In this document: positions 2,314 through 17,211 of the stretch, in pieces
Position numbering within the stretch: position 1 is the first letter of the stretch
Layout: each line of letters starts with the position of its first letter
From: Deltaproteobacteria bacterium
GTDB taxonomy: Bacteria; Myxococcota_A; UBA9160; SMWR01
NCBI GenBank assembly: GCA_032128375.1
Contig: JAQBGU010000191.1
Coordinates: 1-18,288, forward strand
Reading direction: 5' to 3'
DNA: 18,288 nt
The notes under the pieces: model-generated
Databases searched by the model: none
What the model saw: the letters and a program-made list of their open reading frames with translations, nothing else
What the model was told of the DNA's origin: nothing
Made by a program: the position numbers and the translations under genes

Positions 2314-3714
2314 ATGGAAAAGCCGCTCGGCCCGGAAATCGCATCCGAACTGTTGGATCTGCGCGACAAGCCGCCGGAACCGCTGGCAGCTTCGCCGCAG
2401 GCGCTCGGAGTCTGGGAACTCGCCTGGCCCACGATCATCAGCTTCGCGACCCAAACCGCAGTGCGCTGGGCCGACTTCGCAATGGTGGGCTCGCTCGGTA
2501 CCGACGCGCTCGCCGCGGTGGGTCTCGGTGGCCAGATCTACTGGCTGGTGCAGAGTGTCGGAGCGCTGGTGCCGACGGGACTGGTCGCGGTGTTGGCGCG
2601 CGCGATCGGCGCCGGGGATAGCGATCTCGCCGACGCAACGCTGCGCCAGGGTCTGATCCTGTCGACGGTCATCGGGCTCGTCACTACGTTCGCGCTGCTT
2701 CCCTTTTGCGATGTTGCAATCGAGATCTACGGCGTCGAACCCGCCGTCGTGGCGCACGGCTCCGAGTACGTGTTCTGGCTGCTTTGGGGAACCGTTCCGA
2801 TGGCTACCTCGATGGTCTTCGGCACGGCACTTCGGGCCGCGGGAGATGCGCGCTCGCCGCTGTACATCGGTGTGTTGGTGAATCTGATCAATGTGGGCCT
2901 CAACTGGCTGTTGATCTACGGAAACCTCGGGTTCCCGGCGCTGGGCGTCGCGGGCGCGGCGATGGCGTCGAGTCTCGCGATGTTCTTGCAGATAGTTTTG
3001 TTCTGGTGGCTCTGGCGTCGGGGGCGGTTCATTTTGCGCCGGGGCACAGCGAGTTCTCGACTGGACTTTGCTCTGATGCGTCGGATCTCGATTGTCGGTT
3101 ACCCAGCGGCATTCGAGGGTGTCGCGTTTCAGGTTGGCCTGCTCGCGTTTCAGCGGATCATGAGCGTCTACGGCACGGCTGCGATCGCGGCGTACAACGT
3201 CGGCGCGCAAATCCTGTCCTTGTCGTTCCTGCCCGGTATTGGTTTTGCGACAGCCGCCGGGACGTTGGTTGGGCAGTACCTGGGCAGCGGTTCACCCGCT
3301 GCAGCTGAACGCTCTGGTTGGCGCGCGACGGTTGGGGCGATTGTCAGCATGTCGGCGATGGGCGGCGTGGTGCTGCTGTTTCGCGAACCGCTCGCTCGCT
3401 CGTTTACTGACGACCCCGAGGTGATTCGGCTGACGATTGCATTCGTCTGGATCGTCACGCTGGTGCAGCCGATGATGGCGGTGGAGTTTGCGATCGGCGG
3501 TGCACTGCGCGGCGCCGGCGACACGTTGTTCCCGCTGGTCGTGATTTTCGTGGGTCTGTTCGTGTGTCGGCTGATGCCGGCGACGGCGATGGTGACGTGG
3601 TGGGATGTAACAGTCGAAATGGTCTGGTGTGCGCTGATCGCGGATTGGACCGTCAAGGCGGGGATGTTGGCGGTGAGATATCGGAAAGGGCGGTGGAAGG
3701 AAATGGAGGTCTAG
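2314..3714 (+). CDS. MATE-family efflux transporter
   Basis: Motifs LAWP, D..MVGSLG..ALAAVGLG, LRAAGDARSPL, NWLLIYGNLGFPALGVAGAA.A and LRGAGDT, with about 12 hydrophobic segments. Start taken at ATG 2314; the track ORF starts at 2236. Confidence 0.93.
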   Translation: MEKPLGPEIASELLDLRDKPPEPLAASPQALGVWELAWPTIISFATQTAVRWADFAMVGSLGTDALAAVGLGGQIYWLVQSVGALVPTGLVAVLARAIGAGDSDLADATLRQGLILSTVIGLVTTFALLPFCDVAIEIYGVEPAVVAHGSEYVFWLLWGTVPMATSMVFGTALRAAGDARSPLYIGVLVNLINVGLNWLLIYGNLGFPALGVAGAAMASSLAMFLQIVLFWWLWRRGRFILRRGTASSRLDFALMRRISIVGYPAAFEGVAFQVGLLAFQRIMSVYGTAAIAAYNVGAQILSLSFLPGIGFATAAGTLVGQYLGSGSPAAAERSGWRATVGAIVSMSAMGGVVLLFREPLARSFTDDPEVIRLTIAFVWIVTLVQPMMAVEFAIGGALRGAGDTLFPLVVIFVGLFVCRLMPATAMVTWWDVTVEMVWCALIADWTVKAGMLAVRYRKGRWKEMEV

Positions 3715-3813
3715 ACCCCGATTGGACGAGTTGGTTGACCGCTAGGACTTCTGGGCGGATCCGGGGTCTTGACCTGGGTGGAGCGTGGCGGGGCGAGGGC
3801 GTGGCCTACTCCG
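3706..3813. repeat. REP-like repeat, left part: inverted 17-mer (3706-3722) plus one ~70 bp unit (3744-3813)
   Basis: GAGGTCTAGACCCCGAT (3706-3722) is the reverse complement of ATCGGGGTCT(T/C)GACCTC at 8334-8350 and 8402-8418 (16/17 matches). The 3744-3813 unit AGGACTTCTGGGCGGATCCGGGGTCTTGACCTGGGTGGAGCGTGGCGGGGCG...TACTCCG matches the units at 8331-8430. Confidence 0.85.
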
Positions 3814-3902
3814 TTGGCCCAGTCTCGCCCTCGAAACCCGGCAGATGAGGTCCACTATGTCCCGGGTTTACGGGAGCATGTTGCCGGCGCGAGTCGAAAC
3901 GA

Positions 3903-3934
3903 ACCTTGAAGTCAGATTGAAGGTCAGGTAGAAG
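3903..3934 (+). promoter_or_regulatory. MerR-family operator overlapping the putative merR promoter (probably leaderless mRNA)
   Basis: Dyad ACCTTGAA-GTCAGA-TTGAAGGT at 3903-3924 (7/8 symmetric). TTGAAG (3906-3911), a 17 bp spacer and TAGAAG (3929-3934) end 7 nt before ATG 3942. No clear SD sequence. Confidence 0.6.
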
Positions 3935-3941
3935 GTCGCGT

Positions 3942-4349
3942 ATGGCAACGGAACTCACCATAGGCGAGCTCGCCAACGCGGCGGGCGTGCCCACCTCGAC
4001 TGTTCGCTACTACGAGCGGGCCGGAATTCTCGCGCCGAGCGGGCGGAGTGCGGGGAACTACCGCGTCTATTCCGAGGCCGAACTCGAACGACTGCGGTTC
4101 ATCCGCGCAGCACAGGCCACTGGTTTCACGCTGGACGACATCAAGGCGCTTCTTCGGCCTGCAGCCTGCGGCAAGGTGCAGGGTCTTATCGAGGAACGCC
4201 TCGGCCAGGTTGCCGAGCGGATGTCCGAGCTGAGGCGCGTGCAGCGTGTTCTAAAGGGCGCTCTCGCCGAATGCCTCGAACACGAGGAGAGCGGGCGCTG
4301 CCGGGTCATCGAGACTCTAAGTGCCGCGGCCGGCCGTCGAACCTCCTAG
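3942..4349 (+). CDS. merR: Hg(II)-responsive MerR-family transcriptional regulator
   Basis: MerR HTH LTIGELANAAGV..STVRYYER.G...NYRVY and GFTLDDIK.LL. Its only three Cys (C76, C111, C120) have the same 35/9 spacing as C82/C117/C126 of Tn21/Tn501 MerR. It lies directly upstream of mer genes. Confidence 0.88.
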   Translation: MATELTIGELANAAGVPTSTVRYYERAGILAPSGRSAGNYRVYSEAELERLRFIRAAQATGFTLDDIKALLRPAACGKVQGLIEERLGQVAERMSELRRVQRVLKGALAECLEHEESGRCRVIETLSAAAGRRTS

Positions 4350-4539
4350 ACCCTATGGAGTGACCGGCTCCATTCGCAAAACTCGTGATCAAGAAGAAAC
4401 GAGTACGGGCCCGTAGGGCCCTTTGATCGCGGGTTGCCGCCGAGGCGGTAGAGCCCTGTCCTCGAGGCCTCTCCAGCCCAGCGACTGAGCCCGTAACTGC
4501 CGGCAACCGCTCGGCTTTGCGGATTCTTCCAGAAAGCCC

Positions 4540-4571
4540 TTTACCTTGCACCCAGGTTCAAGCCGTAAAGT
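4540..4571 (+). promoter_or_regulatory. MerR-type long-spacer promoter/operator of the mer structural operon
   Basis: -35 TTTACC (4540-4545), 20 bp spacer, -10 TAAAGT (4566-4571). The dyad CTTGCACC-CA-GGTTCAAG (4545-4562) fills the spacer. 4543-4564 is 15/22 identical to the dyad at 3903-3924. Confidence 0.7.
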
Positions 4572-4611
4572 CTAGCAGTGGTGGGGATTCGCGCGCGCCA
4601 CGAAGAGAGGA

Positions 4612-5256
4612 ATGGAGTTGATGAACAACGAACCCGAACCGAGCGGGCGATGGGCGACAGGTGGGGCGATTGCAGCCGCCGTGGTCGCGTCATCGTGCTG
4701 CATGCTTCCCCTCGTTTTTGGCGCCGCCGGAATTTCAACCGTTGCGCTAGCCGGCGCGTTTGAGTCCGCACGGCCCTACATGCTCGGCGTCACCATTGTC
4801 CTTCTCGGTCTGGGCTTCTACTACAACTACTTTCGAAAGGCTGCGTGCGAGCCTGGCGACGCGTGTAAGACCCCGCGCCCGGGCCTTCGACGCATGAATC
4901 GGACGATGCTCTGGCTCGCCACGGTGGCGGTCGTCGCGCTCGCGTTCTTTCCCTCCTACGCGTTCGTGTTCGCGGGTAGTGAAACCCCGGCGGTTTCCGG
5001 CGTTGAATCCATCGACTCCAAGCAGGTGGTTCTCGAAGTCAGCGGTATGACGTGCGAAGCCTGCACGGTGAGCGTGCAAAACGAGCTCGCCGCAGTCCCT
5101 GGGGTTCTTCGCTCCGAAGTCGACTTTCGAGCCGGGAAGGCGGTCGTCTTGTTTCAAGCTGACTCGGCTCCGAGCGCGAGCGATTTGCTGTCTGCGGTCA
5201 GCCGCGCTGGATACTCGGCAGTTGTCGCCTCTTCCGCTCGGGGAGCTGAGGGATGA
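4612..5256 (+). CDS. merT: Mercuric transporter MerT fused to a C-terminal HMA (MerP-like) domain
   Basis: ASSCCMLPLV in TM1, RPY, a cytoplasmic CEPGDAC pair, a third TM, then an HMA domain VSGMTCEAC...VPGV...AGY. The stop overlaps the merA start (ATGA). RBS GAGAGGA; ATG 4621 is an alternative start. Confidence 0.9.
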   Translation: MELMNNEPEPSGRWATGGAIAAAVVASSCCMLPLVFGAAGISTVALAGAFESARPYMLGVTIVLLGLGFYYNYFRKAACEPGDACKTPRPGLRRMNRTMLWLATVAVVALAFFPSYAFVFAGSETPAVSGVESIDSKQVVLEVSGMTCEACTVSVQNELAAVPGVLRSEVDFRAGKAVVLFQADSAPSASDLLSAVSRAGYSAVVASSARGAEG

Positions 5257-6686
5257 GCGATTGCTGTGCGAACGACCTGACGGACGAGCGGTCATTTGAC
5301 CTGGCCGTCATCGGTGGCGGCTCGGCAGCGTTCGCCGCGACGCTCCGCGCGACTGAACTCGGAGCCACCGTGCTTCTCGTAAACGAGGGCACGATTGGTG
5401 GCACCTGCGTGAACATCGGCTGTGTTCCCTCGAAGACGCTCATCCGAGCTGCCGAGAACTTCCACTGGAATCAGCTTTCTCGGTTTCGTGGGGTCAAACC
5501 GAGTCCTGGAAGCATCGACTTTCGGTTGCTGATGGAGGAGAAGAACGCACTCGTTGAGAGCCTTCGGACAGCCAAGTATGCAGACGTTCTCTCACGCCTC
5601 TCTGGTGTTCGCTTTCTAGAGGGCAAGGCGAAGCTCACCGGACGGAACGAATTGGAGGTGTCGGGGGAGCGCTTCGAGGCCGGGAAGATGGTCATTGCCA
5701 CCGGCACGCGACCCGTTTTTCCGGCCATCCCTGGACTCGCCGAGGCGGCTGTCTGGGACAGCACGCAGGCGCTCGATGCGCCGTTTCTTCCGGAGCGACT
5801 CATCGTGCTCGGGGGGAGTTATATCGCGCTCGAGCTCGGTCAGATGTTTTCTCGCCTGGGAAGCGAGGTCACGATTCTGCAGCGCAGTGCACATGTGCTC
5901 TCAGGAGAAGACCGCGACGTCGCAGAGGGTGTGACGCGGTTTCTCCGCGAAGAGGGAATCGAGATTCTTACCGGACAGAAGCTGCAGTCGGTCGAACGGC
6001 TGGGCGACGGTTTCGTAGTGGATGCAGCGGGAAACGCCGAGGTTGTCGCCCACAGCGCTGATGCCGTGGTATCAGCTCTTGGACGTCGTGCGAACACCGA
6101 AGCGCTCGAACTCGATGCCGGTGGCGTAGAACTCGACGCTCGCGGCTTCGTTCGCGTAGGCGACGACCTCGAGACGACTCAGGCGGGTATCTACGCCGCG
6201 GGCGACGTCCTGGGTGAGCCTGCCTTCGTCTACGCCGCAGCCTATGAGGGCTCACTTGCCGCCGAGAACGCACTCTTGGGAGAGGCTAAGAGGCGCGACT
6301 ACACAGCGATTCCGTGGGTGGTGTTCACGGACCCGCAGGTGTCCGGAGTGGGCCTCAGCGAGCGCCAGGCCGCCGAGTCCGGAATCGAGGTGGACGTCTC
6401 GGTGCTCCCCCTTGAACACGTTCCGCGGGCCGTCGCGGCGCGTGACACGCGAGGATTCGTAAAGCTGCTCCGTAAGAGCGGAACGGACCATCTGGTTGGT
6501 GCTCGGATTGTGGCTCCGGAAGGCTCAGAGCAGATAATGGAAGCGAGCTTGATGATTCGGTTCGGACTTCCTGTTTCCGAAGTCGCCAAGCACTTCCACC
6601 CCTATCTAACGCAAGGCGAAGCAATGAAGCTCGCCATGCTCTCCTTTGACACGGACGTGGAGTCTCTCTCGTGTTGCGCCGGCTAA
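5253..6686 (+). CDS. merA: Mercuric reductase without an N-terminal NmerA domain
   Basis: FDLAVIGGGSAAFAA, redox centre GGTCVNIGCVPSK, FVYAAA, VVFTDPQV, FHPYLT and the MerA-diagnostic C-terminal LSCCAG. Confidence 0.97.
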   Translation: MSDCCANDLTDERSFDLAVIGGGSAAFAATLRATELGATVLLVNEGTIGGTCVNIGCVPSKTLIRAAENFHWNQLSRFRGVKPSPGSIDFRLLMEEKNALVESLRTAKYADVLSRLSGVRFLEGKAKLTGRNELEVSGERFEAGKMVIATGTRPVFPAIPGLAEAAVWDSTQALDAPFLPERLIVLGGSYIALELGQMFSRLGSEVTILQRSAHVLSGEDRDVAEGVTRFLREEGIEILTGQKLQSVERLGDGFVVDAAGNAEVVAHSADAVVSALGRRANTEALELDAGGVELDARGFVRVGDDLETTQAGIYAAGDVLGEPAFVYAAAYEGSLAAENALLGEAKRRDYTAIPWVVFTDPQVSGVGLSERQAAESGIEVDVSVLPLEHVPRAVAARDTRGFVKLLRKSGTDHLVGARIVAPEGSEQIMEASLMIRFGLPVSEVAKHFHPYLTQGEAMKLAMLSFDTDVESLSCCAG

Positions 6687-6973
6687 TCCGCTCCGTCGCC
6701 GTCGTGCTGGTGCTGTCGCTCGGCGCGAACTCACACTCTGCGGATGCGTCCGATGCCCTTCAGACCTGGGTCTTTAGCGTCGAAGGCATGACGTGAGGCG
6801 GATGCGTCAAGTCGGTCCGTGAGGCCGCTCTGAGTGTTGAGGGCGTCACAGAAGCAGATGTGAGCTTGCGCGAGAAGACGGCGAGGGTCACGGCGCGAGA
6901 GGGAACGACGTGGGATGCGGTCAAGAGAGCTATCGAGTCGGCCGGATACCGCGCGGAGCTAGCGGATGAATGA
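6671..6973 (+). CDS. Exported MerP-like HMA-domain protein with in-frame TGA (predicted selenocysteine U42, UxxC motif); absent from the ORF track
   Basis: GGAG (6659-6662) precedes GTG 6671. Translation: MLRRLIRSVAVVLVLSLGANSHSADASDALQTWVFSVEGMT*GGCVKSVREAALSVEGVTEADVSLREKTARVTAREGTTWDAVKRAIESAGYRAELADE. TGA 6794-6796 occupies the first Cys of GMTCxxC. The N-terminus looks like a signal peptide. The start overlaps merA and the final stop overlaps merF. Confidence 0.88.
6801..6838 (+). promoter_or_regulatory. Candidate bacterial SECIS element for the MerP-like UGA
   Basis: Hand-folded. Upper stem CGGUC (6813-6817)/GGCCG (6823-6827), loop CGUGA (6818-6822), bulged U6812, AG/CU pairs, lower stem GAUGCGUCA (6801-6809)/UGAGUGUU (6831-6838). 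The loop begins 21 nt after the UGA. Confidence 0.7.
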
Positions 6974-7205
6974 ACGAAACCTGCTTGGAATCGGAATTAC
7001 TGGAACGATCGTTGCCGCGCTTTGCTGCTTCACGCCAGTTCTCGTGGTCTTGCTTGGCGCGGTCGGCCTGTCAGCGATTGTTGGGTGGCTCGACTACGTG
7101 CTGCTGCCTGCACTCGCGGCCTTCGTTGCACTGACGGTCCACGCCGTTACGCGGCGCCGGCGAGCGCTGGCGGCTTCTTCGTCAGCTGAGGTCGGGAGCG
7201 AATGA
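6966..7205 (+). CDS. merF: Mercury transport protein MerF
   Basis: GTIVAALCCFTPVLVVLLGAVGLSAIVGWLDYVLLPAL is a near-consensus MerF sequence. The stop overlaps the merB start (ATGA). Confidence 0.93.
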   Translation: MNERNLLGIGITGTIVAALCCFTPVLVVLLGAVGLSAIVGWLDYVLLPALAAFVALTVHAVTRRRRALAASSSAEVGSE

Positions 7206-7864
7206 CGCGGCTGCTAGACGCCGCGAAGAAGGCCTGGGCGAGCGAATACGCCGGGCTTTCGGAAGCGGAGATAGAGCAGCGCGTTCGAGGATTTGGCGCG
7301 ATGGTGATAGGCATTGCCGAAGACGGCGTGCTTTGTGTCGAGCGTTTCGCCGAACTCATGGGGCTCGAGACTGCGGTGGCAAGCAAGGTCTTTGCCGGGC
7401 TCTTCGCAGCTGGAATGCAGAAAGACGAGGCCGGAAACATTGTCGGCGCAGCCCTGACTGCGCGCGAAACGCCGCACAAGATTCGCGTGGCCGGTAAAGA
7501 ACTCTACGCCTGGTGCTCACTCGACGCGCTGTTCATCCCCGGGCTTCTCGGCGAAACGGCTGACATCGAATCGACGTGCCCGAGTAGCGGCGATGCGATT
7601 CGGCTAACCGTCTCGCCTGAGGCCGTGGGAAGAGCCGAGCCGTCCTCGACCTGGCTCTCTGTGTTTCTCCCGGGCGGCTCTTCGAGACAGCTAGGACCGG
7701 CGAGCCCGACGTGAAGCCAGATGCACTTTTTCCGCGCCCGGGAGGCGGCGGAGGAGTGGGTGGTGGGGCGAGCGGCAGTCGTAGCACTCAGCCTCGATGA
7801 GGCCTTCGAACTCGCCCAGGTGCATTGGGTGAATCGCGCCAAGCGGCTGCCTACACCACGATAG
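7202..7864 (+). CDS. merB: Organomercurial lyase MerB with in-frame TGA (predicted selenocysteine U171 at the catalytic Cys159-equivalent), 220 aa
   Basis: LYAWCSLDALFIP (C105/D108 = C96/D99 of R831 MerB) and ESTCPSSG (C117-equivalent). After TGA 7712-7714 the frame continues SQMHFFRAREAAEEWVVGRAAVVALSLDEAFELAQVHWVNRAKRLPTPR to TAG 7862-7864, matching the MerB C-terminus FC159CHVHFFAS...AEDW...VSVHEAFGLG. Confidence 0.92.
7724..7758 (+). promoter_or_regulatory. Candidate bacterial SECIS element for the merB UGA
   Basis: Hand-folded. CACUUUUUCCGCGCC (7724-7738) pairs with GGCGGCGGAGGAGUG (7744-7758) with one bulged U and one bulged G. Loop CGGGA (7739-7743) begins 24 nt after the UGA. Confidence 0.72.
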
Positions 7865-8010
7865 GTACTCCGCGCCGTTCCCGGAGCGGAGCCGGTCCGT
7901 TCCGGGCGCCTGAAGCCCTGAGGTCCACGGTGATCACACAAATGATCACCTGAAAACCGGCCATTGGGGCAGAAGTCGTCCGGGACATGGCGTGCAGTCG
8001 ATGCGGTTGG

Positions 8011-8330
8011 CCCAACTTCCGCAGTTGAGAGTTCGTTTTCCTGCTTTTCCAGTCACTTAGCTGGAAAAGTTGGCACTACATTATTTTGTCCAGATGTGTG
8101 GGGACTCGAAGGCGCTCGGGCAGTCGCAAACCCAGTCGATCGAGCAGCATTGCCTGAGCCTCATCGGGACGGACGACGCAGCGGATGCGAAGCGCGCGAT
8201 GCGGCTCACCGGCCAACGGGAGCACGACGTCGGTGCTCTGGATGCGGCCGATCTCCTTCAGGATCGTGCGTGGACTGTTGCCCGACCCCGCCCGCCGCTG
8301 CCATTGCTCGAGCGTCTTCCACAGCACGTA
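8011..8330 (-). mobile_element. IS1634-family remnant (3' end of transposase plus right terminus)
   Basis: Minus-strand 8330-8076 translates [38 protein letters not shown]...[28 protein letters not shown], recognised as an IS1634-type transposase C-terminus. It is followed by a terminus-like AACTGCGGAAGTTGGG ending at 8011. The coding remnant stops abruptly at the repeat at 8331. Confidence 0.8.
8044..8069. terminator. Perfect 9-bp hairpin just downstream of the remnant transposase stop; possible terminator
   Basis: CTTTTCCAG-TCACTTAG-CTGGAAAAG. There is no clear U-tract, so function is uncertain. Confidence 0.35.
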
Positions 8331-8430
8331 CGGATCGGGGTCTCGACCTCGGTGGAGCGTGGCGGGGCGTGGCGGGGCGTACTCCGAGGACTTCTGGCCG
8401 GATCGGGGTCTTGACCTCGGTGGAGCGTGG
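8331..8430. repeat. REP-like tandem repeat, right part: two partial ~68 bp units (8331-8386, 8387-8430)
   Basis: CGGATCGGGGTCT(C/T)GACCTCGGTGGAGCGTGG occurs at 8331 and 8399, 68 bp apart. Same unit as 3744-3813. Confidence 0.88.
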
Positions 8431-8455
8431 TGGATCGGGGCGGATCGCGCACGAT

Positions 8456-9334
8456 TCAGTATGGGACGTCTCCCTTGATCGTGATTCGGTTCATTTCGCG
8501 ACGGTGGCCCTGGTAGTCATTGAGCGCGTAGTGCTGGACGCAGCGGTTGTCCCAGATGGCTAGTGAACCGGCTCGCCAACGGAAGCGCGTCGTGAATTGC
8601 GGAGAAGTTGCGTGCGCTGATATGAAGTCCATCAGCGGTTGGCTTTCTTGGATTCGCATGTTCTCGAAGCGCTCGACGTGGGGGACATCCATGTAGAGCG
8701 CACGCCGACCCGTTTCGGGGTGGGTGCGAACGACGGGATGAATGAAGCGGGCCTGCTCCTTGGCTTCGTCCTGTTTCTTGCCCATCGGGTGGTCGACCTT
8801 TGCGTAGAGGCCATCAGAACTGTGTACCTTGGCGGCCGTGAACACCGCGTTCAGGTTTCCGAGCATCGCTTGCATTCCGGTCGATAGTGCGTCGTACGCG
8901 GCCGTCATGCTGGCAAACAGAGTATCTCCACCCGCCGTCGGAACCTCCAGCGCGTACAGAATCGTCGCCATCGAAGGCTTCTCCTGGTAGGACATGTCGG
9001 AATGCCAGCCGCCGCCGAAGTTGATCTTGGTATCCGGTTCTTTGATGATCGGAATCACGTAGGGGTGATCGGGTAGTGAGGGGATGAACGGATAGGTGTC
9101 GAGTTCACCGAAGTGTTCGGCGAATGCGGCCTGTTCGCTCGGGGTGATCTGTTGATCGCGAAAGAACAGGACCTGGTGTTCGAGCCAAGCGTGGTGGATT
9201 TCTTCGAATACCTTGTCATCGACATTCGAGAGGTCGACACCGCTGACCTCGGCGCCGATACAACCACTGGTTGGCTCGACCTGGATTCTCGCGTACTGAA
9301 ATGAGTCTTTGGCTGAGGAGTCAGATGCGTTCAT
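8456..9334 (-). CDS. TauD/TfdA-family Fe(II)/2-oxoglutarate dioxygenase
   Basis: [21 protein letters not shown] (HxD), [32 protein letters not shown] and [10 protein letters not shown]...R. Confidence 0.95.
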
Positions 9335-9384: not shown

Positions 9385-12300
9385 CTACAGGACCTGGGAC
9401 CGCTGCTCAGCAGCGCGTCCGGCCAGATTTCCATATCGGTGGTAGTTGACGCACAGGCTCTGCTCACGCAGATAGTGGAGCAATTCGATCCTTCCGTCAG
9501 CCAGAACAGGCTCGGTGGCCAGATACAGCCCTGTTGCCGCCGCAGAGCGTCTCACCAACTCCGGAACCCGCTGCGCGCTAGCGAACCGGAGCCGATCGGT
9601 CTGCCCGGCCTCGATGGCCTCGGCCACCTCGGCGTCGGTCTCCTCGACGAACTCCACGGCCACCTCCGCTCGGCGGGACCACTCCCGTAGCAACGCGACG
9701 CGTCCGTCCCAGCCCGAGCGCGATGAGACTGTTGGCGGGCACTGCGCGGTGTGGGCGGCTATCACCATCGCGAAGACCTCGAAGTCGGAATCGGCCCGGT
9801 CGATCCGAACTCGCAGCGCAGCGAGCGGTAGATAGCGCCTCAGGTTGTCTTGACCGACCAAACGGAACGAGTCGTGATCGCTTCCGAATTCTTCGGTCAT
9901 CGCGAGCTGGTAGCTTCCGGCCGCCGCGAGCAGTCGCTCGAACTCAGTAGAATCGAGCTCAGGCCGATCAGCGAGCGCGGCAAACAGCGGGCCCAGCTTC
10001 GCATCCTCCGCCGCGTCGACAGCCGGTGGCGCACTGCGATCGGACACACGCATCAACGGAACCACATAGTTCGGTCCGCCGGCCTTCAGGCCCGGCCCGA
10101 TCGCGCTGCGCGCCACCCCTCCGAAGGGCTGCCGGCCGACGATCGCTCCGGTGGTTCCCCGGTTGATATAGAGATTGCCCGCTCGAATCTTGTGAGACCA
10201 GGTCTGCCATTCGCGATCGTCGAGGCTATGCAAACCAGCCGTCAGTCCGTAACCGGTCGCGTTCGCCAACGCGATGGCCTCGTCGAGGTCGGCCGCCGCC
10301 ATCACGCTGAGGACTGGCCCGAAGAACTCCGTCGTATGGCCGGGGCTGTTTGGCGCGACTCCCCATTTCACACCAGGCGACCAAAGGTTCGGGTTTTGTG
10401 CATCGGGCCTCGGCGTGACCGCCCAAGATTCGCCCTCATCGAGCCGGCGTAGTGCCGTCGCAAGTGCTCCAGAAGGGGGCCGAATCAGTGGACCGACCCG
10501 CGTCGTCGGGTCCCACGCAGAGCCGACGGGCAGGCTCTCGACCGCATCACACAGCGAACGGCGGAAACCCGCATCGTCGAAAACTTCGCGCTCCAAAATC
10601 AATAACGACGTCGCAGAACACTTCTGTCCCGAGTGACCGAACGCGGATTGGACGCAGTCGCTGATCGCCAGGTCGCGGTCGGACATGGCGGTGACGATCA
10701 TTGCGTTCTTGCCTCCGGTCTCCGCGAGTAGCCGCATCGCGGGTCGCTGGCTCAGCATTGCGAAGGCCGTCTTGGTTCCCCCGGTGAAGACCACCGTGTC
10801 GACATCGCCGTGGGCGACGAGGTGGGCTGCCACGTCATCGTTGTCACCGGACACGAATTGAAGCGCGCTGCGGCCGATGCCGGACGACCAGAAGCACTCG
10901 CACAAGATGTACGCAGTCTGCACCGATTCTGGCGCCGGCTTCAGGATCACTGTGTTGCCGGCTGCAAGCGCTGCGGCCACGCCACCGCACGGAATTGCGA
11001 TCGGGAAATTCCACGGCGGCACGACCGCAACGACGCCCCGGCCCGACACATCGAGGTTCGCGCGATTCGCAAGAAATTCGGCCGCCCGCGCGTAGTATTC
11101 GCAGAAGTCGACCGCCTCCGAGACCTCCGGATCGGATTCGGCCAAGATCTTACCGGCCTCGGCCAAGGCGATGCCCAGCAGGTCCGCGCGCCGCTCTCGA
11201 ATCGCTTGAGCGGCGGCGCGAAGCCTCTCCCCGCGCTCTGCCGCAGACTTCTCGCGCCAGCGGTCCGGATCCTCGATCGCGCATGCGACTGCGGCATCGA
11301 CATCCGCCACGCTGGCAACCCGGTACCGGCCCACGACAACGCCTGGCCGCGATGGATCCGTCGATTCGCGGATTGCGTGTCCGTCCATGATCTCGCGGCC
11401 CCCGATTACCAGGGATGCCTCGACGGCCGCGTCGGTGTGCCGACCCATCCAACGTTGATAGATGGACTCCACCCAGCTTTCATGGTGGTACAACGCGAAA
11501 TCGGTATCGGGCTCATTGACGAACTGGTCGAGCGGCGCCTGCGCGGCGAGAGCGGGCTGCGGGGCTCGGCGACGGTCCTGGCGGCGGCGCGGCGTGTCGG
11601 GCAGATCGGCGATCCGATCGAAAGCTTCGACGAAGTCGCGTTCGAGTGCCCTCCAGGCTTCGGAATCGACCGTGACGCGGAATGCGTGACGCAGAAAGTT
11701 GCTCGGGCCCGAATTCTCGTCGAGCCGCCGAATCAGGTAACCGATGGCGTAAACGAAATCCTCCCGGCGGCATGCGGGCGCGTACAAGAGCAGCTCGGAG
11801 GTCTGTTCGAACAAAGCCCGCCGCTGGTGGTTCGCCATGCCTTCGAGCATTTCGAACTGGACGCAGTCCTCGATGCCGCGCTCGCGCGCCAATACCAATC
11901 CATACGCGAGTTCGAACAGGTTGTGTGAGGCAACGCCGATTCTGACAGCCCGTGCGTGGTCTGGCTCGAGCCCGTAGTGGAGCATCCGCTTGAAATTCGC
12001 GTCGGTGTCACGCTTGTGCTGGAAGGTCGCGCACTCCCATCCGCTGAGAGATGCCACGACTCGCTCCATTTCCATGTTTGCACCCTTGACGATTCGCAGT
12101 GTGACTGGGGCACCACCGCGTTGTCGGCGTCGCAACGCCCACTCAGTGAGCGTCCTCTGGGTGCGAAACGAGTCCGGTACATATGCCTGCAACACGAGGC
12201 CGGCTGGAATATTGGATAGGTCGGGCCGGTCGAGCGTTCGCATGAAGACCTCAGCCGTAATCGACATGTCCCTGTACTCTTCCATGTCCATGTAGACGAA

Positions 12301-12945
12301 CTTCGGTGCTTCCCGGCCGGCAGCAGCCTCGCGGTAGAGCGATTCCATCCGGTCGCACAGCGTCTCGATTGTTTGCTGGCGCGCGACGACCGAAATTTGC
12401 GAGAAGAGTGTCGAGATCTTGACCGACACCACCTCGATGTCGGGGTTGCGTAGCGCCTGTCGGTAATGTTCCAATCGGCGTGCGGCTTCCGCTTCTCCGA
12501 GCAACGCTTCGCCGAGAAAATTGACGTTCATGCGCACGCCCTCGGCGCGCCGCGCTTGCAGGTGAGGCCCCAATAATTCTGGCTCCGCGGGCAGTATCAC
12601 GTTGGCTGTTTCGTGCTGCATCTTTTCCTTGACGAGCGGAACCGCGACGCCGGGCAAGTAGCCTCCGAACGATTGAAAGCCGCGCAGCAGTGTGCGGTCG
12701 AGCGGCGAGAAGAAGCGGGGTACACCCTGCACGTCGAGTATATGAGTCAACTGATCGGCGGAACGCCAGGCTGTGTTGGACCGGAATGCCTGATCGGTCA
12801 ATTCCACGAGCGTGGCCCTGTCGGAGGGGTGTTGGATCATCCGATCGAGTTCGGCCTGTTGGCTCAGCTCTTGCGGAGTTTGCAGTGCTGCGGAGCGCTG
12901 TTGGAGCTGGTGCGCCAGTTCCACCGCGCGCTGAACGTCGTTCAT
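9385..12945 (-). CDS. putA: Bifunctional proline dehydrogenase / L-glutamate-gamma-semialdehyde (P5C) dehydrogenase
   Basis: PRODH motifs NFLGE, DMEE, LQAY, RIVKGA, ASHN, FEMLEGM, YLIRRLDEN. ALDH motifs PWNFP, FTGG, AETGGKN, GQKCSATS, EFFGPV, YGLTAG, QPFGG. Confidence 0.95.
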   Translation of the reverse strand: MNDVQRAVELAHQLQQRSAALQTPQELSQQAELDRMIQHPSDRATLVELTDQAFRSNTAWRSADQLTHILDVQGVPRFFSPLDRTLLRGFQSFGGYLPGVAVPLVKEKMQHETANVILPAEPELLGPHLQARRAEGVRMNVNFLGEALLGEAEAARRLEHYRQALRNPDIEVVSVKISTLFSQISVVARQQTIETLCDRMESLYREAAAGREAPKFVYMDMEEYRDMSITAEVFMRTLDRPDLSNIPAGLVLQAYVPDSFRTQRTLTEWALRRRQRGGAPVTLRIVKGANMEMERVVASLSGWECATFQHKRDTDANFKRMLHYGLEPDHARAVRIGVASHNLFELAYGLVLARERGIEDCVQFEMLEGMANHQRRALFEQTSELLLYAPACRREDFVYAIGYLIRRLDENSGPSNFLRHAFRVTVDSEAWRALERDFVEAFDRIADLPDTPRRRQDRRRAPQPALAAQAPLDQFVNEPDTDFALYHHESWVESIYQRWMGRHTDAAVEASLVIGGREIMDGHAIRESTDPSRPGVVVGRYRVASVADVDAAVACAIEDPDRWREKSAAERGERLRAAAQAIRERRADLLGIALAEAGKILAESDPEVSEAVDFCEYYARAAEFLANRANLDVSGRGVVAVVPPWNFPIAIPCGGVAAALAAGNTVILKPAPESVQTAYILCECFWSSGIGRSALQFVSGDNDDVAAHLVAHGDVDTVVFTGGTKTAFAMLSQRPAMRLLAETGGKNAMIVTAMSDRDLAISDCVQSAFGHSGQKCSATSLLILEREVFDDAGFRRSLCDAVESLPVGSAWDPTTRVGPLIRPPSGALATALRRLDEGESWAVTPRPDAQNPNLWSPGVKWGVAPNSPGHTTEFFGPVLSVMAAADLDEAIALANATGYGLTAGLHSLDDREWQTWSHKIRAGNLYINRGTTGAIVGRQPFGGVARSAIGPGLKAGGPNYVVPLMRVSDRSAPPAVDAAEDAKLGPLFAALADRPELDSTEFERLLAAAGSYQLAMTEEFGSDHDSFRLVGQDNLRRYLPLAALRVRIDRADSDFEVFAMVIAAHTAQCPPTVSSRSGWDGRVALLREWSRRAEVAVEFVEETDAEVAEAIEAGQTDRLRFASAQRVPELVRRSAAATGLYLATEPVLADGRIELLHYLREQSLCVNYHRYGNLAGRAAEQRSQVL

Positions 12946-16351: not shown

Positions 16352-16484
16352 CGGTTGATGACTCTTTGCACGATCGGTTGATGACTCTCTACCTCAACCG
16401 GTTGATGACTCTCTACCTCGATCGGTTGATGACTCTCTACCTCAATCGGTTGATGACTCTCTACGTCAATCGGTTGATGACTCT
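16352..16484. repeat. 24-bp tandem repeat (VNTR), six core copies
   Basis: CGGTTGATGACTCT occurs at 16352, 16375, 16399, 16423, 16447 and 16471. Linkers are TTGCACGAT, CTACCTCAAC, CTACCTCGAT, CTACCTCAAT and CTACGTCAAT. Confidence 0.97.
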
Positions 16485-16485
16485 A

Positions 16486-17211
16486 CTACCAGGTTTCCGC
16501 GAAAGGGCGGATTTCGGTTTCGAACGTCCAGGTGCTCCTGGGCTGATGGGCCAGGTGCCAAACAGACTCCGCGATATCTGCTGGTTTCGCGAAGAAATCG
16601 TCCGGGGCTTCGGGCATGCTCTTTCGCGTCCACTCCAGATCGATCACCGCATCGATTACCAGATAGCTGACATGGATTCCCCTGGGACCGAGTGAACGCG
16701 CCATGCTCTCGCCCAGGATACGCTGCGCGGCTTTGGTCGGTGCGAAGCCCGCGAACCGCGCTTTGCCACGCCGGGCGCTCGTATTGCCGGTAATGACGAT
16801 CGACCCGGCTCCGCTGGCCAACATGTCAGCAGCAGCGAGTTGGCCACAGTGGAACAGCCCCATCGTATTGATCTGGAAGTTGCTTTCCAGAACCTCGGGC
16901 GCGAGATCCATGAATTCCGAAAAACTTCCCATCGCTGCGTTGTATACCAGTACGTCGACAGGCCCCAGTTCGTTTCGAATCGCGTCGAATGTCGCGTCGA
17001 GCGCCGCGCGGTCGGTTACGTCAGACGCGAACGCGTGTGTGTTGGGAATGGCCGCGGCCCACTCCTTCAGCCGATCTTCGCGTCGTGCCAGCATCGCGAC
17101 CTGGTAGCCGCCCTTAGCAAAGCGCTCCACGCTGGCGAGACCCGTGCCCGGGCCGACTCCCGCAACTACGCAGACACCGCCGCCCATGACATCGCTCACG
17201 TCACCGCTCAT
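16486..17211 (-). CDS. Short-chain dehydrogenase/reductase
   Basis: VVAGVGPGTG (GxGxxxG), LVYNA, TGNTSA, FAPTK.AQR (FxxxK variant), GIHVSYLVIDAVID and WTFETEIRPFAETW. The start overlaps the upstream gene's stop. Confidence 0.93.
   Translation of the reverse strand: MSGDVSDVMGGGVCVVAGVGPGTGLASVERFAKGGYQVAMLARREDRLKEWAAAIPNTHAFASDVTDRAALDATFDAIRNELGPVDVLVYNAAMGSFSEFMDLAPEVLESNFQINTMGLFHCGQLAAADMLASGAGSIVITGNTSARRGKARFAGFAPTKAAQRILGESMARSLGPRGIHVSYLVIDAVIDLEWTRKSMPEAPDDFFAKPADIAESVWHLAHQPRSTWTFETEIRPFAETW

Follow-up and report, generated by a model that had tools for sequence, protein, structure and literature searches.

A predicted broad-spectrum mercury resistance operon with probable selenocysteine codons at two mercury-ligand positions

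The DNA considered here, referred to as the window, is the whole 18,288-nucleotide (nt) contig JAQBGU010000191.1 of assembly GCA_032128375.1, assigned to a Deltaproteobacteria bacterium (lineage Myxococcota_A; UBA9160; SMWR01). Its positions 3942-7864 hold a mercury resistance (mer) operon in which two genes, a merP-like gene and merB, each carry one in-frame TGA codon. The first-pass annotation, made from the sequence alone, had described a complete operon of merR, merT-HMA, merA, merP-like, merF and merB, with overlapping structural genes, in which the two TGA codons encode selenocysteine (Sec). Coordinates, open reading frames and Pfam and NCBIfam families agree with that layout: the six mer-family genes all lie on the + strand, and the five structural genes overlap one another by 4, 16, 8 and 4 nt. 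The TGA codons, at 6794-6796 and 7712-7714, are the sole lesions, as originally described, and the other mer genes are intact.

The regulatory gene merR (3942-4349) scores 75 bits on Pfam MerR_1, 53 bits on MerR-DNA-bind and 107.7 bits on TIGR02051, below the cut-off of 150.85. Its translation contains Cys76, Cys111 and Cys120, spaced by 35 and 9 residues, which we take to be the three-cysteine spacing of mercury sensors such as Tn21 MerR. The next gene (4612-5256; Pfam MerT 47.2 bits, HMA 44.7 bits) encodes an all-cysteine fusion of MerT to a C-terminal HMA domain with the motif GMTCEAC, and scores 114 bits on the MerTP model NF033556, below its cut-off of 180. The reductase core encoded by merA (5253-6686) reaches 519 bits on TIGR02053, above the cut-off of 454, and is the sole MerA in the genome to do so. 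It has a CVNIGC redox pair, a C-terminal SCCAG motif and an N-terminal CC pair at residues 4-5, and it has no NmerA domain; the HMA part of the MerT fusion perhaps takes over that role. The N-terminal CC pair is kept in three of five relatives (L028, L173 and L034), and a single Cys is found in the other two (L167 and L109).

The merP-like gene (6671-6973) encodes a predicted exported HMA selenoprotein of 100 residues, with an N-terminal hydrophobic leader as judged by eye and a stop codon of its own at 6971-6973. It scores 55 bits on Pfam HMA (cut-off 24.8) and 46.8 bits on the MerP equivalog model TIGR02052 (cut-off 92.55), and the CopZ models of NCBIfam score as well as the MerP model. Downstream, merF (6966-7205; Pfam Transport_MerF 84 bits; NF033565 101.5 bits, cut-off 50) encodes an inner-membrane mercury transporter with a CC pair. 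The last gene, merB (7202-7864), encodes a putative organomercurial lyase selenoprotein that scores 105.7 bits on Pfam MerB PF03243 (cut-off 27) and 140 bits on the NCBIfam equivalog NF009710 (cut-off 193); the genome contains no other MerB match.

Read through its TGA at 7712-7714, merB gives a protein of 220 residues that includes Cys105, Asp108 and U171, the last within the sequence SPT-U-SQMHFF. The best match of this protein in the PDB is 3f2g (E 1.6e-24), on which U171 falls on Cys159, and Cys105 and Asp108 fall on the AWC-LD motif. The TGA therefore sits at the position of a mercury-liganding cysteine, as had been claimed from the sequence. The residue numbering for the catalytic site, Cys96, Asp99 and Cys159, was taken from Haft and Gwadz (2022; bioRxiv 10.1101/2022.07.06.499078). 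All three positions are kept, in that the alignment shows no variation at Cys105 or Asp108 and Sec is predicted at position 159.

The MerB codon is conserved among diverged genomes. Eight of 401 genomes sampled from the phylum have a MerB match, and the four best of these, from the window's genome and three others of its order, are 50-59% identical and each have one TGA in the same column. Across 80 species-representative loci this column is TGA in 14 and TGC or TGT in 51, with 11 loci out of register and four unaligned there, and homologues of both kinds were thus found. A tree of 63 MerB sequences, from which loci with a match shorter than 125 residues or with E above 1e-10 were excluded, placed 13 Sec forms in one clade (support 100/98) and two Chloroflexota Sec forms in a second. 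Both clades are nested among Cys forms, which points to one or two switches from Cys to Sec. The reading frame is open for at least 40 codons 3' of the TGA in all 15 Sec merB genes. The ratio of non-synonymous to synonymous substitution rates (dN/dS) in this 3' part is 0.13-0.47 over 12 comparisons, two further comparisons being saturated. For the MerP-like gene the corresponding values are 0.18-0.31 (three comparisons, with one further saturated), and purifying selection downstream of both TGA codons is thereby supported.

In public databases 221 proteins match MerB at E of 1e-20 or lower, under the source names alkylmercury lyase, organomercurial lyase and hypothetical protein. Among the best 120 homologue clusters, 107 stop one residue before the Sec column, mostly at the sequence ASPT, five carry a Cys and continue through the column, and five of the remaining eight end on similar tails there. 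MerB is thus a member of a large natural family whose public sequences are, on this evidence, cut short at the predicted Sec codon, and the suggestion that such genes are hidden from standard gene callers is borne out by about 107 of the best 120 homologues. One full-length public protein of 230 amino acids (P0049) reads ASPT-C-SQMHFF, in which a Cys is surrounded by precisely the residues of the Sec clade; this may be a natural reversion from Sec to Cys, useful for comparison.

In the MerP-like gene the TGA at 6794-6796 stands where the HMA motif GMTCxxC has its first Cys, giving VEGMT-U-GGC with predicted Sec at residue 42 (U42). Alignment with relatives places it on a mercury-liganding cysteine, in line with the earlier description. 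Five of the 193 genomes of the order, the window's own and four others (G492, G353, G477 and G490), have a MerP-like match with one TGA, always as GMT-U-G[GS]C and with 42-77% identity. The exact pattern EGMT-TGA-GGC occurs in 91 metagenome stretches; 77 of the 80 that were examined encode intact HMA proteins with hydrophobic N-termini, the exceptions being L131, L137 and L189.

Several variants of the MerP-like protein were seen in this comparison. The exported or lipoprotein-like HMA proteins with a UGGC motif from metagenomes (L127-L206) form a large family, found mostly outside full mer operons, and their genes often adjoin merR-like genes. Fusions of MerT to an HMA domain with Sec in the HMA part occur in L133, L148, L193, L194 and L205. 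In L109 (G353) and L110 (G477) the frame of the Sec-type MerP remains open past the usual C-terminus, to 237 and 324 amino acids, which suggests fusion to a further domain. At L023 (8040-8440, G348) a Cys-type MerP (GMTCGMC) has its C-terminal part in another frame, a break that a frameshift or a fault in the assembly might explain; the MerB of that locus keeps its TGA. Apparent in-frame stops in the MerT of L113 and L126 were discounted, as each is merely the merT stop followed by merP.

A hairpin resembling a selenocysteine insertion sequence (SECIS) lies downstream of the merB TGA at 7724-7758 (+ strand), beginning 12 nt past the codon, with an upper stem at 7732-7751 and the loop CGGGA. 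In an alignment of 15 Sec sequences 87% of cells are paired, against 42-60% when the pairing partners are slid. Pair 25-35 is UA in seven sequences, GC in five, UG in two and GU in one, and the switch alters both of the encoded residues. At least six of the seven upper-stem pairs form in 13 of the 15 Sec forms and in none of the 11 nearest Cys forms. The merB stem-loop is therefore covarying and absent from Cys forms, and the hairpin evidence for Sec in this gene is strong.

For the MerP-like gene the hairpin evidence is only moderate. The candidate SECIS at 6813-6827 (+ strand), CGGUC[CGUGA]GGCCG, lies 19 nt past the TGA. It is present in exact form in four of seven close relatives, two of which lengthen it by different flanking pairs, and a conserved hairpin of 5-7 base pairs (bp) is seen in the window's close MerP clade. 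In the main clade of the wider family of Sec-type HMA proteins (HMA-U), columns 15-20/26-31 form a hairpin with 86% pairing, compared with 21-45% for slid partners, and with 23 doubly changed cells. The hairpin of the window's clade lies 4 nt later than this family hairpin, and both have a CGUG(A/C) loop. When the hairpin of the window's clade was scored as a signal of the whole HMA-U family, pairing was 52%, no better than controls, and this idea was rejected. Presence of a hairpin likewise failed to discriminate Sec from Cys forms of MerP, as Cys forms fold too. The MerP SECIS is thus a candidate with moderate support from sequence comparison. Conservation and selection carry most of the argument for Sec in MerP. 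The similarity between the hairpins that follow the two TGA codons, pointed out in the first-pass annotation, extends to a common apical loop, C-CGUGA/CGGGA-G.

The genome that contains the window (6.2 Mb, 91% complete) encodes the machinery that decoding of UGA as Sec would need. A tRNA-Sec was detected at 68.7 bits and called by ARAGORN as tRNA-SeC with anticodon tca, SelA was found at 445 bits, SelD at 334 bits with one in-frame TGA, and a SelB wing domain lies within a frame of 690 amino acids. The expectation that the host has tRNA-Sec, SelA, SelB and SelD is thereby confirmed. A SelA gene is present in 178 of the order's 193 genomes, which suggests that Sec use is the rule in the lineage; its co-occurrence with the Sec-type mer genes is consistent with Sec decoding and does not discriminate. 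SelD of this genome (L011, G000:C140:3308-4234) itself appears to be a selenoprotein, reading PAGG-U-ARK, with a hairpin GGGCCUG[GUU]CAGGCCC about 20 nt after the UGA.

Contigs from sequencing runs agree with the two codons. Three of the runs belong to one study, which might be the source sample, and one to a second study; their contigs span the TGAs, and among the rows listed for them no difference was found at either codon. Since independent genomes and metagenomes also have TGA at these alignment columns, the codons are neither unique to this assembly nor contradicted in the listed rows, two outcomes that had been named in advance as damaging to the Sec proposal.

The operon with both TGA codons recurs elsewhere. 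It was found in L028/L192, L173 and L149, at 70-78% DNA identity to the window, so that the predicted dual-Sec operon is present in at least three other diverged lineages. L028/L192 shares 73-91% protein identity with the window, and the metagenome contig L192 is 98.8% identical to L028; L162 is 99.5% identical to L173 and ends before the MerB column. L028, on the 802-kb contig G492:C1, is labelled uncultured Spirochaetaceae, yet its genome is placed in the window's order, with Myxococcota-labelled relatives.

The stretch shared by the window and L028 is confined to 3895-7832, and the flanks differ. In the window the neighbours of the mer genes are MatE on one side and TauD on the other, and the mer genes are bracketed by a direct repeat of 45-60 nt (repeat families D2/D7) with one left copy at 3744-3801 and two right copies at 8331-8375 and 8387-8443. 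The three copies occur only at the mer locus in the whole genome and look like the footprint of a cassette insertion. No integrase or transposase was found in the window. An empty insertion site was not found; G450, a genome of the same genus, is syntenic with the window only as far as TauD (8452), and its contig ends soon after. Overall, the dual-Sec operon looks like a mobile cassette.

The simplest account of an in-frame TGA is a nonsense mutation or an assembly error, which would make merP and merB pseudogenes in a decaying operon. Under translation table 11 the two genes are indeed truncated, to open reading frames of 41 and 170 amino acids, and public gene calls stop at the same place. 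However, many diverged genomes and metagenomes share the codon at its column, the frames beyond the TGAs are open and under purifying selection, the contigs of four runs show no listed difference, and the remaining mer genes are intact, so that decay or misassembly is considered extremely unlikely. If instead the UGAs are true stops of split genes, MerB would consist of 170 amino acids followed by 47 amino acids from the ATG at 7721, and MerP would be only a fragment. There is an ATG three codons past the MerB TGA, and an open reading frame at 7721-7864 is listed; however, the Met is conserved in Cys forms too (CSQMHFF), which identifies it as a structural residue and not a start. A split would also forfeit the Cys159-equivalent ligand, there is no start codon after the MerP TGA, and the merB hairpin is specific to TGA-bearing genes. 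Split genes are thus judged highly improbable. The earlier argument that Sec recoding is far likelier than two independent nonsense mutations is upheld by the machinery, by recurrence at the same columns and by purifying selection.

Read-through could also insert an amino acid other than Sec, either Cys on tRNA-Sec when selenium (Se) is scarce, Trp or Cys by near-cognate decoding, or another residue through lineage-wide reassignment of the codon. In other systems, Cys is known to be inserted at Sec codons when Se is limiting. Against this, TGA is the ordinary stop of merT-HMA (5254-5256), the MerP-like gene (6971-6973) and merF (7203-7205), and since it ends three genes of the same operon the code is not globally reassigned. 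Moreover, the genome has full Sec machinery and a Sec-containing SelD, and the hairpins lie at SECIS distance from each UGA; the chance of read-through without Sec is accordingly rated as slim. The proteins might, finally, be real selenoproteins of a cluster that serves another soft metal or organometal, such as Cu, Cd, As or organotin. In favour of this, the HMA protein scores equally well on CopZ models, MerB and MerR are below their equivalog cut-offs, and Sec in the MerB-like protein SaoL may shift its substrate range (Haft and Gwadz, 2022). On the other side stand a MerA over the TIGR02053 cut-off with a C-terminal CC pair, a MerF over its own cut-off, and six genes that all belong to mer families and form one overlapping unit. 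MerR, in addition, has the three-cysteine spacing of a mercury sensor, as in Tn21. A substrate other than mercury is therefore regarded as unlikely, though not negligibly so.

Some observations weigh against a dual-Sec mercury operon. The presence of Se in MerB and MerP is itself deduced from sequence, and there are no RNA runs among those listed for the locus. Single-sequence fold z-scores of the two hairpins are weak (-1.67 and -0.64), and Rfam, scanned over 6600-7900 with E values as high as 10 allowed, gave no match, including to any curated SECIS family. The hairpin of the window's MerP clade shows almost no covariation besides the flanking pairs, and hairpins of 3-8 bp form as well in the Cys-type HMA genes of these GC-rich genomes. 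MerB, MerP, MerR and MerTP, though above Pfam thresholds, are all under NCBIfam equivalog cut-offs, so their substrate specificity is deduced from context. On chemical grounds, the Se-Hg bond is stronger than the S-Hg bond, and product release from MerB could be slowed. Taken together with the conservation, selection and machinery described above, it is nevertheless very probable that both TGAs are real Sec codons. It is almost as probable that the locus is a working broad-spectrum mer operon that moves horizontally, that its bearer is a marine-sediment bacterium which uses Sec and has Myxococcota-labelled relatives, and that two mercury-ligand cysteines of the operon have been replaced by Sec.

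The closest precedent for the MerB protein is SaoL, a MerB-like selenocysteine-assisted organometallic lyase (NF040728) with a CU motif, encoded in a nine-gene SAO locus of anaerobes, for which a role in resistance has been argued against (Haft and Gwadz, 2022). SaoL and the window MerB have in common the MerB fold (PF03243), Sec on MerB Cys159 and gene calls that end about 50 residues early. In contrast to SaoL, the window MerB scores only 27.1 bits on NF040728 (cut-off 140) but 140 bits on canonical MerB, has a T-U motif in place of C-U, and is surrounded entirely by mer genes in a merA-containing operon rather than an SAO locus. Its identification as SaoL is ruled out by this score, motif and neighbourhood.

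Sec-containing HMA proteins also have precedents. Zhang and Gladyshev (2008; PMC2398784) tabulate two sequences of a Sec-containing 'Mercuric transport protein MerP'. Tables in PMC9312934 and PMC13188914 list a Sec-containing MerT (the MerT/CopZ fusion NF045683), a UxxU metal-binding protein (NF041115), a UxxC P-type ATPase and SaoL, and in these listings SaoL is the only MerB-like selenoprotein. Like the window MerP, the predicted Sec-type MerP and metal-binding selenoproteins have an HMA fold with Sec in the CxxC motif. The window protein differs from NF041115 in being UxxC (UGGC) rather than UxxU and scores 48.3 bits on that model (cut-off 95); unlike the earlier Sec-type MerP, its gene overlaps merA and merF in a full mer operon with a Sec-type MerB. 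The statement in the first-pass annotation that Sec-containing HMA and MerB-like proteins had each been predicted before is therefore correct (PMC2398784; Haft and Gwadz, 2022). Its further suggestion, that the dual-Sec operon may be undescribed, still stands: no description of a Sec-type MerB in a merA operon, or of a dual-Sec operon, was found in a literature search that covered few subscription journals and no supplements.

Canonical mer operons (R831b MerB; PDB 1s6l, 3f0p and 3f2g; merRTPA of the Tn21/Tn501 type) are built from the same gene families. The MerB triad positions, the redox and C-terminal Cys pairs of MerA and the CC pairs of MerT and MerF are all kept. The window operon departs from the canonical form in the predicted single Sec ligand of MerB and of MerP, in a merR co-directional with the structural genes, in the MerT-HMA fusion and in a MerA without NmerA; in addition, its function would depend on Se and on selABCD. 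To our knowledge, characterised mer systems are all-cysteine, as reviews agree. What is new is the predicted placement of Sec at metal ligands, a known type of substitution, within a canonical mobile mer operon. The description of the operon as 'rebuilt around selenocysteine' holds for the two ligand positions and is otherwise overstated, since Cys is retained throughout MerT, MerF, MerA and MerR and also at the second ligand in both MerP and MerB.

The data suggest the following working model. MerR would turn the operon on, and SelB with Sec-tRNA(Sec) would decode UGA 6794 and UGA 7712, aided by the hairpins just downstream. The exported MerP-like protein would hold Hg(II) between Se of U42 and S of C45 and deliver it to MerT or MerF, and MerA would reduce Hg(II) to Hg(0). 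MerB would break the carbon-mercury bond through a Cys105/Asp108/Sec171 triad, with Sec in place of Cys159, and hand the resulting Hg(II) to MerA. A selenolate has a higher affinity for mercury and a lower pKa, from which capture could benefit. That the Sec substitutions are an adaptive specialisation rather than a neutral exchange of Cys and Sec is offered tentatively, as a possibility that is less likely than not.

Should the adaptive interpretation be true, a mobile Se-dependent cassette would give sediment bacteria a means of capturing Hg(II) and cleaving methylmercury where these occur at trace levels or where sulfide and thiols compete strongly. The Sec-type MerB would then be a kinetically distinct and possibly superior lyase whose Se-Hg product needs a dedicated hand-over to MerA, and the selenium and mercury cycles would be coupled at the level of an enzyme. 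Reliance on selenoproteins has been argued to be a liability for mercury resistance (Haft and Gwadz, 2022), and the recurrence in nature of a bona fide merA operon that would rely on Sec at two ligand positions runs counter to that argument. Surveys of merB for methylmercury-demethylation potential would score the Sec clade as truncated or broken genes. The Sec-MerB clade also offers a natural Cys/Sec pair at an active site, in which the effect of Se on C-Hg cleavage and on Hg hand-over can be tested.

Between merR and merT-HMA lies a 38-nt block (4537-4574, + strand) that is nearly invariant across four diverged operons while its flanks diverge. The dyad CTTTAC-N20-GTAAAG lies within this block, which may serve as the MerR operator, with a long-spacer promoter. 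A sigma-70 promoter scan of 3700-8500, dyad block included, found none, and terminator-like matches in the same interval were no better than those in shuffled sequence.

Outside the mer cassette, comparison of positions 9385-12945 with L224 (G450) shows that the TauD and PALP orthologues are adjacent in the latter, and that a 3.5-kb PutA gene lies between them only in the window. Further downstream, a 24-nt unit (CGATCGGTTGATGACTCTCTACCT-like) is present in four to five copies in tandem at 16371-16490, between an amidohydrolase gene and a short-chain dehydrogenase gene.

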